DNA from: Raillietiella orientalis
Taxonomy: Eukaryota
Direction: 5' to 3'
DNA: 64,000 nt
Assembly: GCA_036172245.1 (NCBI GenBank)
Contig: JAYWIR010000008.1
Span: forward strand, 310,001-374,000
Within the stretch, counting starts at the first letter, position 1. Every line of letters begins with the position of its first letter. The position numbers were made by a program, and so were the translations under genes. Positions 24,350 through 31,812 of this stretch are shown piece after piece. The notes beneath the pieces are model-generated. The model was not told where the DNA came from and searched no databases. It worked only from the letters and a program-made list of their open reading frames with translations.

Positions 24350-27300
24350 TCAGTTACCGTAGAAAACTGGTAGGGGAATTCGGGAACCGGCTGACGTCAG
24401 TGACCCTCGCCGGTACTTGGGCGTGCTCGAAATGATCCCCTCGCTCTTCTGCGCCCGGTAATGCTGCAGCACGTTTTCCACCGCATGCAGGAGCTTGTCG
24501 TCGCTGTCGTGGGAAGGATTGTAAAGAGTCTGCAGTAGCAGCGGGGAAAGAGTCCTGTTGCGGCACTGTCGGGAGGGGGACACGGAGACAGCGCGCGTGC
24601 GCGCAAGGGGACCTTCCGCCGTCTTGCGGGTCTTCACCGAGCTGCTGACGCGGCTTCCTCGCCGGAAGGCTTGCGGCGTCGGCGGCGCCATGTCGCCGTC
24701 GAGGCGAGGTCCCTCCGCACAGCGTATCCCGCTGTTGCTGATTCGGTGCGAGGGTAAGGTTGGCGTGCCGGAAAGGTCCAGGGAGTTCTTGCGACCTCGG
24801 GAGCTGCTGCGATAACCTTCGTCGGAGCCTTCCGAGCCACTGTCCCCGACAGGAGACCTCGTCGTAGCAGGGCTGCTCACTCCCGACGACGTGGCGCCGC
24901 CGCGGTAGGACGACGACTCGTCCTGCGGGAAGATTCGTTCCGCTGCACGAGTTCCGCTCCCTCACCCCTTCCCACTCACGTCTTCGCGGGAGGAAGGCAG
25001 GGAACTCGCTACCAGAAGGCGCGAGACACACTCGGAAGCGTTCTTCAGGATGCTGTGCGGGGAAGACTTCTTGCTGCCGACGATGGGCGCACAGCCAGTG
25101 CTCGATCGCCTTCCACAGGAGGGAAAATCTTCCCTGGAGCAGAAAAGGGTGAGGATCGAGCAAACGAGGCCCCGGCTCGCTACCTCTCGTACTCTACGTG
25201 CATCTGAATGTCTTCTCCGTTGGGTGGGCTTTTCGCGTAAACACGGGAAGACAGCAACGTCCTGTGCCCTAGTGGGGGAAGAGACCAGGGAACTGTCTGT
25301 ACCTTGCTGACTTTGAAGTCGAAAGTCTCAAAAGAAGGTGGCAAAAAAAAAAAATAAATGAAAACGAAAGACGCTCCAAATCTGAGAAGGTTGTTCTAGC
25401 GAAGTTCTTTCCGAATTCCGAGCTGAATTCGGAGAACGATCTTAACTTTTCAAATGGAAAAAAAAAAAAAATTCTAGATTTTTTTAAAATAGAAAAGAGA
25501 GGGAAAGAGGTCTTATCCATGCGAAACACTCCGCGTCTTGTGGCATGCCAATCTTCAACCTCTTTCAAAGGCAGTGGGGACTCATGTCGGAGAGATGACT
25601 CGCGATCCCGGAAGTCCGCAAAGGCTGCCTACCTTGGTGACATCGGCAAGGGTCGTGTTTATCCAAATAGTGTTGCAAGGTGTCCCAGCCTCCACCTACT
25701 CGCACCATTACATGATTCCTGAGAACCTGAAGGGGCAGTGACCATCTGAAAGGGACCCGCTTACTCGAATGTATATCAGCACTTTGGTATCGCCGATTCG
25801 GTACTTTCCCTCGCTCAGCTTGATCATGGGAAACTGCACGGGACAGGTACACTTTTCGACGTGATCACGCACCTACAAAGGACAGGTTCAGAACTCGTTC
25901 ATCAGGCAAAAATCATCGCATCCGCATTCCATGTGAATGTGCGGTAGGCGGGCAACACGTTCCGCGTTATACGGGCCCAATGGGTTATTATATACGTGGA
26001 CACCATGTAAATCGTCTCTTCCTACGGTACGAAAGTGGAGCGATTCTTATTCCACTTTGAAAGAAGAGGGGAAAAACTTGTGGAGTGCTGATTTATTATT
26101 TAGAGAGCTTTGAAAGTTTGTCGATGTTTTTATGGGGTCTGAAGATCCTCTCTGGTCTCGGCTCGTATGTCGCGCCCGTCGCCGGAAAAAGTATCTTCCT
26201 GCACTGTTCTTCCCACGAAAACGTGAATGAAATGGGGTTCAACTCTCTCGGATCACATGTTAAGAACAGCTGAATCGACCATGAGCTCGAAACGTGCCCG
26301 CAGCGTGCTGAACGGGGAGGCTGCACCGAGGACTGTCGTTGCCGTGTCTTCGCCGCCGCCACCGCGTGATAGGAAGCCGCGTTGTACGGATGATGCCTAC
26401 CTGTACATATAATATTTGCGTTAGTCACAGGGGACCCGTACACAGAGTAAACAGTTCCCATTTGTTGTTGCTGTTGTGTTGCTTACTAATGGTTCACCAA
26501 TTCCACCCGAGTTTGTCGCAAATGAAAAGTCATTTAGAGCACGTTTGCGACACTAATGTGGCTGGAGGGACGCAACACAGGTGGACACGATGATGCAGGC
26601 CGTACGCCTGACACTGACAACAAAATGTCTAGGAGATACATCTTTTCCGCCGAGCAATCAAATTTAGAGTGTGCAATCCGCTCGATTCGGTGCGAGGTCT
26701 TCATCACAATCACAAAAGTTGGGAAACGGGCGTGAAACGTTCGGAAGAGTGAACGCTACCATTCCAAAGACATCGTGAATCTGCCAAGTTCGGCCACGTC
26801 CCATCTGGAAGCTGCAACTTGCGGACCTGAATCCCATCAGCGACCGTTCCAGAAGTTCCAAAAAGGTATCCGGCAGGCAGTCAGCAGCGCTTTGGGCATA
26901 CCGCCATACCGTTCTCCTTCGGTTCGAAAAACATCTGCAGGGTCGTTGCACAAACTTCCTTCTGCCGCCGCCTCTGCGTCCACGATCGGTAATTCAAGCT
27001 CGCAAGAGTTGAAGGAAGGCGACGCAACGTCAAGAGAAGCAGACGAAAGCAGGGAAAGCCCTGGATGTGAAGGCAGCTGGTAAATCGGAACAGAGCGACA
27101 AGAAACGCGTTCGAACCGGTCTGCACCCGGCGACCCGTAGGAACGGCAAGGAGCGACGGGGTGTCCCTGCGGCAGGGAAGTTACGACCGTGATGCTCCCG
27201 GCGGGTTATCTTTTGGACCGCATGCGGGCACGCAGCGACTTGTGCTCGTCGGAAGCGAAGTAGCTAATCCGAGGAGCAATATGGCAAGATGAATCGAAGC

Positions 27301-30300: not shown

Positions 30301-31812
30301 AGGCAACGCGGCTTCCTATGGCGCGGTGGCGGCGGCGAAGGCACGGCAACGACAGTCATCGTATGACGCCGTGCATCCTCCCCGTTCAGCACGCTGCGGG
30401 CACGTTTCGAGCTCATGGTCGATTCAGCTGTCCTTAACATGTGATCCGAGAGGGTTGAACCCCATTTCATTCACGTCTTCGTGGGAAGAACAGTGCAGGA
30501 AGTGCAGTGCAGATTTCCGGCGACGGGCGCGACATACGAGCCGAGGAGACCAGAGAGGACTTTCCGACTCCACAAAACATCGACAAACTTTCAAGTTTTT
30601 CTCCTTTTCCTTCGAGGTGGAATAAGAAGAAACCCTCTACCGACGCGCAGTGCTTCTTGAGACCAGCCCCACGCTTGAAAGAAGGCAGCCGTGCTGCCAA
30701 GCTACCGGACGCGCGCAGGCCGTACGCGCCCTCCCATTCGATTGCGCGCCCACGAATCTTCCCGCCGAAATTACACATCGTGATGTCGGCAAGCGATCGA
30801 ATGCCCGAAGAATCCCATCCACACCGCGCCAAAACGCCAGAACAGAATGTACACCACGCTCTTCTTGGTAGGTCTTTTTCTTTGCAGGCGCGCAGCAACA
30901 ACGACTGAGCAAGTCATCACCATCATCCACCTCTTCCGCTCCCCAATCTCGTTCTCAACCCGAATCGCATCCAGGAAGCACGACAGTACCCACCAAACAC
31001 ACGGAAAACAAACGCGCCAACATCGGCCGGTGCTCGAACGTGCGAAAGACAAGGGGACCGGGCGTGCGAGGCGAGGCACGAAGCAGCAGTTCAGTTCCCA
31101 GTAGGCCTTCCGCGCGATGGACGCTTCCGCATGGCGCTGCAACACGTAGCCTGTCTCCAGAATGATGCCGTCATCCAGCCGCCTACCAGCGGGCAAGGTC
31201 CTCCGCCTCCGACGCAACGTCAGCAACAGCGCACGCGCCGCTGCAAGCGCCAGCCGACATGGAACGCTTCCTTCGGTGTAAAAAATCAGCGACTTCTCCC
31301 ACCGCACAGCGTCTCCACGTCCACCTTCGCTCCCGAAAGAGAGACCAACCACCCCATCGGCGGGCCGGAGAGCCCTTGCAGCCGTCTTGCCAGCACTGCA
31401 GGAAGCACATTCAGCAGGGACGCCCCAGCCGCCTAACCAAAGCCGTGCGCCGCGCACGTGCCAGCGGAAGCGGCGCCTTCTTTCGTGATCCCAAGAAGCA
31501 AACCACGCAAATCCCCCTCTCCTCGTCTCCCCCTCTATCTCCGTCGGACACGCAGAAAGCCATACGCTCCCCTCCTCCCCCTCCCACACAGAAACTTACT
31601 TTGCACAGGATGACGCCGTTTTCCAGAACTTCCAGGAAGTTGTCCGTGGTTACGGGCAGACAGTACAGCTGGCGGAGCCATTCTGCGAGATCTTCCTTCA
31701 TGGCGTACAAATACTCTTCCGACGATTTGAACGGTTTGTACGGGCGCGGATCCAACGACAACACAGTGGTCCGTAGCAAGTCCTGCTCGCTCGTGCCGCT
31801 CGTGGTCATCAT
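24350..31812 (-). CDS. GAS2L: GAS2-like protein (calponin-homology + GAR/GAS2 domain + Ser-rich tail with SxIP; pigs/GAS2L family); exons complement(31600-31812, 28123-28572, 25765-25872, 25633-25726, 25184-25268, 24980-25133, 24350-24922); 558 aa
   Basis: '[20 protein letters not shown]' and '[15 protein letters not shown]...[25 protein letters not shown]' (CH domain); '[21 protein letters not shown]...[30 protein letters not shown]' (GAR domain); C-terminal 'GSRIPLP'. All introns GT-AG; 1677 nt in frame. Confidence 0.93.
26044..26388 (+). repeat. Inverted repeat arm A (GAS2-like intron 2)
   Basis: Reverse-complement match to 30293-30628. Both give the ORF peptide [31 protein letters not shown] on opposite strands. 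Arm A has an extra ~30 nt at about 26081-26109. Confidence 0.9.
30293..30628 (-). repeat. Inverted repeat arm B (GAS2-like intron 1)
   Basis: Reverse complement of 26044-26388, e.g. ttaacatgtgatccgagag...gaaccccatttcattcacg vs cgtgaatgaaatggggttc...ctctcggatcacatgttaa. Confidence 0.9.

Follow-up and report, generated by a model that had tools for sequence, protein, structure and literature searches.

Does a coding exon that lies between two long inverted repeats owe this layout to a function in splicing, or did the repeats come to lie there with little or no consequence? We examined this question in a 64 kb window (the whole stretch of DNA analysed, 64,000 nt) from Raillietiella orientalis, where a sequence-only reading had drawn attention to inverted repeats around the second coding exon of a gene on the minus strand. 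That observation is confirmed here. The layout is a further example of the arrangement known from laccase2 and Alu repeats. It most likely stems from a neutral duplication or repeat pair, and any effect that the repeats (hereafter the arms) have on splicing is probably a by-product.

Judged from its sequence, the gene is a GAS2-like/Pigs actin-microtubule cytolinker (CH + GAR + SxIP). Our gene model has seven exons on the minus strand, the strand of all features given below, separated by GT-AG introns and predicted to encode 558 aa. The coding part of exon 1 (31600..31812) begins with an ATG at 31812 and encodes 71 aa, including the start of the CH domain. It is followed by intron 1 (28573..31599, 3027 nt, GT-AG), by exon 2 (28123..28572, 450 nt), which encodes the C-terminal three quarters or so of the CH domain and the linker to GAR, and by intron 2 (25873..28122, 2250 nt, GT-AG). 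The GAR/GAS2 domain is divided between exon 3 (25765..25872, 108 nt), which holds its first half, and exon 4 (25633..25726, 94 nt), which holds its second, with a 38-nt intron between them. Both of these exons align with the GAR of homologues, and the domain is recognized by Pfam (PF02187, E 1.1e-17; score 64 bits, cut-off 21.3). The alignment with homologue P0005 extends into exon 5 (25184..25268, 85 nt). Exon 6 (24980..25133, 154 nt), encoding a Ser-rich tail, and the coding part of exon 7 (24350..24922), ending in a stop codon at 24352-24350, are assigned solely from GT-AG sites and reading frame. Exon 7 encodes a candidate C-terminal SxIP EB-binding motif, in the form of a single SRIP at position 548 of the 558 residues predicted. 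The two introns around exon 2 had been described as the only long ones in the coding region, and this is the case, with 3027 and 2250 nt compared with 38, 364, 50 and 57 nt for the other four.

Exon 2 also has the structure first attributed to it, with 450 nt forming 150 stop-free codons on the minus strand, phase 0 at both ends, and AG and GT at its borders. Its junctions (LCK/HANNV and LDEL/VRD) are colinear with all seven homologues tried, and exons 1 and 2 together are colinear with residues 8-222 of homologue P0002. In P0002 the Pfam CH domain covers residues 34-161 and exon 2 aligns from residue 69 on; measured in this way, exon 2 contains about 93 of the 128 CH residues plus the linker, in agreement with the earlier statement that it encodes most of the domain. 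Among solved structures, exon 2 matches the CH domain of GAS2 (9kbx_A, E 1.8e-17), and Pfam CH makes no call on exon 1 alone or exon 2 alone. The best protein matches to exon 2 among those listed are 44-63% identical, which marks the gene as a divergent orthologue from a lineage missing from the protein library. The CH-coding region of the two closest metagenome loci is interrupted by an intron near residue 88 that the R. orientalis gene does not have.

In pre-mRNA order, the upstream arm (30293..30628) lies in intron 1, with the exon-1 donor 971 nt away on its 5′ side and the exon-2 acceptor 1720 nt away on its 3′ side. The downstream arm (26044..26388), reverse-complementary to the upstream one, lies in intron 2; the exon-2 donor is 1734 nt away on its 5′ side and the exon-3 acceptor 171 nt away on its 3′ side. 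The arm ends originally proposed are correct to within about 10 nt, and the distance of roughly 1.7 kb claimed for both sides of the exon is borne out; exon 2 lies almost exactly midway between the arms. When aligned with MAFFT (26044-26384), the arms are reverse-complementary, as had been read from the letters, with 92.5% identity over 308 aligned columns (23 mismatches) and 50 gap columns in five indels of 32, 1, 3, 5 and 9 nt. The match is far beyond chance (E ~1e-100, blastn), and its blastn blocks are 26110-26384 against 30594-30304 (88.0% over 292 columns, gaps counted) and 26044-26080 against 30628-30592 (86.5% over 37 columns). A repeat search placed the core blocks at 26195-26326/30371-30502 (132 nt, 97%) and 26327-26384/30304-30361 (58 nt, 93%). 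No further inverted match between introns 1 and 2, as a larger palindrome or a common transposon body would give, was found by blastn at a word size of 7. A test for uneven conservation along the arms, such as gene conversion or selection might leave, gave no significant result (Fisher p = 0.82). Of the 14 transition mismatches, five would permit a G·U pair on the gene strand and nine on the opposite strand, and the gene-strand count gives no sign of selection for pairing.

As to what the arms are, we infer a lineage-specific inverted pair of a ~345-bp non-coding sequence, about 7.5% diverged, which would have arisen by local inverted duplication or, alternatively, represent two copies of a dispersed repeat of low copy number. 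No third copy was found in the 64 kb by blastn or with an nhmmer --max profile (next best match E 0.043), and an exact 28-mer of the arm core had no match in metagenome contigs. Searches of the surrounding DNA returned no Rfam match at E<=1 (22000-36000) and no tRNA-like gene (ARAGORN, 20000-36000), and none of the 35 stop-to-stop ORFs of the introns and arms reached the curated Pfam cut-off, the four weak matches having E values of 0.024-0.09. A 128-aa frame, the one arm frame compared with 1.84 billion protein representatives, had no match there at E<=1e-10; it had two at E<=0.001, each spread over many stretches of a protein of more than 2000 aa and read as low-complexity. Since the organism itself is absent from the protein library, that library is no guide to arm copy number. 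These searches give no support to the arms being a protein-coding or RNA gene. A MITE or TIR DNA transposon, whether formed by one arm or by the whole 4.6 kb, is not supported, as by eye no terminal inverted repeats inside the arm and no target-site duplications were seen, and no third copy exists in the 64 kb. A SINE is likewise not supported, there being no tRNA-like or Rfam head and no A-rich or simple-repeat tail or poly(A) at the arm ends. The same window contains a second local inverted pair, unrelated to this one, which we counted towards the by-product view.

Folding predictions suggest that the arms would be able to pair in the pre-mRNA, as had been supposed. In silico, the arm-arm dimer has 290 intermolecular pairs and a predicted gain of -354.4 kcal/mol over the monomers, compared with -12.0±4.7 kcal/mol for shuffled arms (n=20), and 285 of the arm-arm pairs remain in the MFE fold of the whole 6047-nt pre-mRNA. 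A stem of about 290 bp formed in this way would loop out exon 2 together with the ~1.7 kb of intronic sequence to its left and right, and the base of the stem would then lie ~1 kb from the exon-1 donor and ~0.2 kb from the exon-3 acceptor. By analogy with laccase2 and zip-2, such a geometry may favour some back-splicing of exon 2, giving a 450-nt circle, and some skipping of it, giving a 408-aa protein without the CH fold that would keep GAR and SRIP. In the gene model the products are those that the sequence-only reading had foreseen, as skipping of exon 2 leaves an in-frame product that contains GAR and the single SRIP and is missing roughly three quarters of the CH domain, and frame 0 of the circle is stop-free with four in-frame ATGs. 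An in-frame skip and an "endless" circle frame both follow from an exon of phase 0/0 with a length that is a multiple of three. They are automatic for any such coding exon and therefore add no evidence of design.

The closest parallel is exon 2 of Drosophila laccase2, where inverted transposon copies of ~400 nt are described as necessary and sufficient for the circle (Kramer et al. 2015, PMC4617980). As in the account of laccase2 given there, an arthropod gene has a single second exon that can in principle form a circle, enclosed by a repeat pair of a few hundred nt each, one in each flanking intron; these introns are much longer than is typical of the genome, and related species do not share the repeats, a point that is judged here from 12 distant loci (PMC4617980). 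The two cases differ in that the laccase2 repeats closely flank the exon, are 69-75% identical and belong to a named transposon family, DNAREP1_DM, whereas the arms here are 1.7 kb off, 92.5% identical and not placed in a named family (PMC4617980). They also differ in that the laccase2 circle was demonstrated by Northern blot, RNase R and mutagenesis, and the present case is known from DNA sequence alone (PMC4617980). In zip-2, the RCMs are reported to drive the circle and the skipped mRNA alike, and the likeness lies in complementary sequences in both flanking introns and in a circle and a skipped linear mRNA proposed from one exon; the zip-2 RCM is 13 nt long, is conserved in five nematodes and has effects proven by CRISPR deletions, compared with ~345 nt and a predicted effect only for the arms (PMC8330042). 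Mammalian circRNAs are described as tracking young, species-specific repeats (Gruhl et al. 2021, PMC8516420). The mammalian Alu/transposon loci resemble this one in having species-specific inverted repeats in the flanking introns, likely with circles as a splicing by-product, but they involve very high-copy repeat families, whereas no third copy is present here within 64 kb (PMC8516420). A literature search returned no paper joining "pickled eggs" with "circular RNA", and among the matches listed none described a GAS2-family circle driven by repeats.

Conservation in relatives had been put forward as a further check on the arms, and it was not seen: among 12 distant GAS2-like loci there is no case of inverted repeats around the CH exon. 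These loci come from metagenome contigs and are all distant (best-segment amino acid identity of 36-83%), their DNA similarity is restricted to the coding parts, and about five of the 12 (L002, L003, L005, L010 and L012) reach at least 2 kb on both sides of the CH exon.

We consider the best explanation to be a neutral repeat pair with some back-splicing and skipping as a low-level by-product, and not a selected device, and we would give this reading an even chance. The arm-exon distance of 1.7 kb counts against an effect on splicing, the laccase2 repeats sitting close to their exon. Long perfect dsRNA may be unwound, edited or diced instead, and this too counts against such an effect. A neutral origin gives no account of the near-exact centring of the exon (1734 vs 1720 nt).

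The by-product reading has its main competitor in the possibility that the pair is inert, that is, that the arms are neutral remnants of duplication or transposon insertions with no measurable splicing effect. We regard this as a serious though tentative alternative. It is noted by Kramer et al., citing Westholm 2014, that many exons between complementary repeats fail to circularise (PMC4617980), and in the honeybee comparison complementarity did not tell circular from control intron pairs (PMC6347836). The distance from the arms to the exon-2 splice sites, the split of the G·U-compatible transitions between the two strands and the absence of flanking repeats from the distant loci all fit an inert pair. 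Against it stands the strength of the predicted duplex, since 290 bp with a gain of -354 kcal/mol is far above the ~40 nt of complementarity reported as enough in plasmid experiments (PMC4617980). Long flanking introns, which are presented for fly and bee as the principal correlate of circularisation (PMC4617980, PMC6347836), raise the propensity of this exon further.

It is unlikely, in our view, that the pair is instead a selected device, kept to set how much full-length linker is made relative to an isoform without CH that binds only microtubules, to a translatable circle of exon 2, or to both. The centring of the exon to within 12 nt and a skipped product that stays in frame with GAR and SRIP retained would suit such a device. 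In mammalian Gas2L1 the CH domain is described as autoinhibiting the microtubule-binding tail (PMC6831992), from which a CH-less isoform would be expected to be de-repressed for microtubules. There is also the precedent of zip-2, where RCMs conserved among nematodes are reported to drive a conserved skip (PMC8330042). These points are opposed by the 12 distant loci without flanking repeats, by mismatches that have no bias to G·U on the gene strand, and by the in-frame skip and open circle frame being automatic. A fuller version, in which looping out of the centred exon 2 acts as a selected RNA switch in an arthropod with otherwise tiny introns and balances three products (an autoinhibited full-length linker, a CH-less constitutive microtubule binder and a 450-nt circle that could be translated endlessly into CH repeats), has if anything a slightly slimmer prospect still.

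The intronic hairpin of 290 bp could also act mainly as a source of dsRNA, leading to ADAR editing or Dicer endo-siRNAs (hpRNA-like) and not to altered splicing, but this is very improbable. The predicted duplex is long and near-perfect, and in Drosophila hpRNAs and endo-siRNAs are known to come from long inverted repeats, which we counted in favour. The arms show no target-like homology (0/35 ORFs with Pfam, no protein at E<=1e-10 and no other match in the window), and the loop of such a hairpin would be 3.9 kb and hold a constitutive-looking exon, both of which argue against this role. Finally, a DNA-level role (recombinational inversion of the 3.9-kb exon-2 segment) or an assembly artefact is barely credible, since, while inverted repeats at 92.5% identity can recombine, exon 2 shares orientation and frame with its neighbouring exons and nothing suggests a population of inverted alleles, and assembly fold-backs give identical arms, whereas these differ by 23 mismatches and five indels.

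At present the locus is a predicted case of a well-described layout, one that often arises neutrally and is often inert, and its value is that of a specific, cheap test case and not of a new principle. Should back-splicing or skipping indeed be driven by the arms, the locus would offer a clean, low-copy instance of circularisation through repeats in an arthropod lineage outside the usual models, one that would be easy to dissect, and the exon affected would be the one carrying the actin-binding, autoinhibitory domain of a cytoskeletal cross-linker.

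The window is eukaryotic and carries, on the minus strand at ~24.35-31.81 kb, a GAS2-like ("pickled eggs"/pigs-type) gene. Using tblastn with seven arthropod homologues, we placed exon 1 (to 31600), exon 2 (28572-28123), exon 3 (from 25872) and exon 4, and all seven homologues are colinear across both the LCK/HANNV and LDEL/VRD junctions. Joining the exons by script gave seven coding exons and a 558-aa frame from the ATG at 31812 to the stop at 24352-24350, with every intron GT-AG and exons 6-7 based on splice-site consensus and frame only. Pfam recognised the GAR domain (PF02187, E 1.1e-17), and a single SxIP motif, SRIP, lies at residue 548 of the model. 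A CH domain was not called by Pfam for exon 1 alone or exon 2 alone; the solved GAS2 CH domain 9kbx_A matches exon 2 at E 1.8e-17. Since exon 2 aligns from residue 69 of one homologue, P0002, in which the Pfam CH domain covers residues 34-161, it encodes about three-quarters of the CH domain plus linker.

In gene order the introns measure 3027, 2250, 38, 364, 50 and 57 nt, the 38-nt one (25727-25764, minus strand) interrupting the GAR domain. Very short introns seem usual for this genome, and so the two kilobase-sized introns flanking exon 2, 6 to 80 times the length of the other four, stand out. Intron 1 also contains a run of ~21 G (90% pure; 29643-29663), which is C-rich in the pre-mRNA. 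Elsewhere in the window, GC changes sharply between 1-22000 and 22000-64000: below 20 kb most 2-kb intervals have 28-34% (with 43% at 16-18 kb), and from 22 kb onward the values are 49-68%. At 19865-21365 on the plus strand are ORFs resembling exons of an AMP-binding gene, acyl/acetoacetyl-CoA synthetase-like (AMP-binding E 5.5e-05, under its cut-off; AMP-binding_C E 3.2e-05, over its cut-off). Thirty long stop-to-stop ORFs of 190-521 aa from the GC-rich interval 31166-64000 matched no Pfam family at E<=0.001, and they resemble open frames produced by high GC more than genes.

Each long intron holds one arm of an inverted repeat, 26044-26388 being the reverse complement of 30293-30628 by repeat search, MAFFT and blastn alike. 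Over 26044-26384 the arms share 92.5% identity in 308 aligned columns, with 23 mismatches (14 transitions and 9 transversions) and five indels of 32, 1, 3, 5 and 9 nt; there is no difference in identity between central and terminal portions (Fisher p = 0.82). Exon 2 is separated from the inner edge of the intron-2 arm by 1734 nt and from that of the intron-1 arm by 1720 nt. On the outside, 171 nt remain between the intron-2 arm and the exon-3 acceptor, and 971 nt between the intron-1 arm and the exon-1 donor. No additional inverted similarity was found between introns 1 and 2. The sequence-only reading had described arms bracketing exon 2 as a circRNA or exon-skipping architecture, and its description of arms, exon and introns was correct wherever we checked it (repeat search, MAFFT, blastn, gene model). 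Exon 2 is nearly central in the 26044-30628 unit, with midpoints of 28336 and 28347.5 agreeing within 12 nt; this is a post hoc observation with a chance of roughly 1%, and we know of no mechanism that requires such centring.

With a match E of about 1e-100 the similarity of the arms is not chance, and they are not an assembly fold-back, given their 23 mismatches and five indels. The arms are neither coding nor a known RNA: none of 35 stop-to-stop ORFs in arms and introns reached the Pfam cut-off, Rfam and ARAGORN returned no matches, and a search of 1.84 billion representatives with a 128-aa arm frame gave nothing at E<=1e-10, in a library that does not include this organism and so does not inform copy number. 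By eye, we saw no terminal inverted repeats inside either arm, no A-rich tail, and no target-site duplication bordering the arms or the 4.6-kb unit as a whole. The 64 kb holds no third copy: blastn at word size 9 found nothing longer than 32 nt elsewhere, and an nhmmer --max search with a two-arm profile gave the arms at E 3e-139 and 4e-135 and the next match at E 0.043. The arms may have arisen by inverted duplication in place or as two members of a repeat present in low copy number. Local inverted pairs are not rare here, since a second pair (58633-58809 / 59268-59444; 177 nt, 95% complementary, 458-nt spacer), unrelated in sequence to the arms, lies in a region without a Pfam-recognisable ORF. 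Diverged dispersed pairs at 49389-49775 / 52049-52450 (direct, 75%) and 50292-50575 / 61340-61632 (inverted, 70.5%) suggest that the region from 46 to 64 kb holds old repeat families.

RNA folding predicts 290 intermolecular base pairs between the arms on the gene strand, a gain of -354.4 kcal/mol over separately folded arms (-12.0±4.7 with one arm shuffled, n=20), and 285 arm-arm pairs are retained when the whole 6047-nt pre-mRNA spanning exons 1 to 3 is folded to minimum energy. Such a stem would loop out exon 2 and draw the exon-1 donor and exon-3 acceptor together, and we infer the steps from pairing to altered splicing by analogy. The same geometry experimentally drives circularisation of Drosophila laccase2 exon 2, where ~400-nt inverted DNAREP1_DM copies are necessary and ~40 nt is enough (PMC4617980), and yields both a circle and a skipped mRNA at C. 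elegans zip-2 (PMC8330042). The main circularisation correlate reported for fly and honeybee is long flanking introns (PMC4617980, PMC6347836).

At the sequence level, skipping exon 2 would leave an in-frame 408-aa product retaining GAR and SRIP. The microtubule-binding tail of rat/human Gas2L1 is autoinhibited by its CH domain (PMC6831992), so by extension across phyla a CH-less form might bind microtubules constitutively. An exon-2 circle would be stop-free through three laps in frame 0, with four in-frame ATGs, and would have stops in frames 1 and 2. Any coding exon that is phase 0/0 and divisible by three in length automatically gives both the in-frame skip and the open circle frame, and these two properties contribute no evidence of design.

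An exon 2 protein search returned 659 proteins at E<=1e-10. The best 120 matches are 44-63% identical and nearly all have CH and GAS2 domains; the top scores listed are from springtails, horseshoe crabs and crustaceans (52-59% identity), and identity peaks, at up to 63%, in vertebrate GAS2L2 matches of partial coverage. Judged by these best 120 of 659 matches, the organism is arthropod-like and without a close relative among the library proteins. In 12 GAS2-like loci from metagenome contigs, similarity to this gene is confined to coding parts. An inverted repeat flanks the CH exon in 0 of these 12 loci. This is weak evidence against function or selection, because the loci are distant (best-segment identity 36-83%) and only ~5 extend for 2 kb or more to each side. 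In the two closest, an intron at ~residue 88 splits the exon-2-matching region (L010 9836-10271; L011 863-1292), so the CH-region exon layout is not conserved.

The arm mismatches show no bias in favour of preserving the pre-mRNA stem: 5 of the 14 transitions would be G·U on the gene strand vs 9 on the other. The role of chance in the placement of the arms turns on genome copy number. By our own arithmetic, no third copy in ~59 kb sets a 95% upper bound on density of ~1 per 20 kb, at which two independent inverted insertions, one per intron, would affect <~1% of such genes; across a whole genome this is still a large number of genes, so a single example met by reading windows is unremarkable. 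Published work notes that many exons flanked by repeats fail to circularise (PMC4617980), that in honeybee circular and control intron pairs were not told apart by complementarity (PMC6347836), and that mammalian circRNAs mostly follow young, species-specific repeats and are by-product-like (PMC8516420). Our literature search found no paper tying pigs/GAS2-like genes to repeat-driven circles. The sequence-only reading is partly supported: the architecture and its in silico consequences hold, while the RNA outcomes remain predictions. The arms and exon 2 are a further instance of a laccase2/Alu-type repeat-flanked exon, in which the repeat pair is most likely of neutral origin and a circular or skipped RNA would be at most a by-product.
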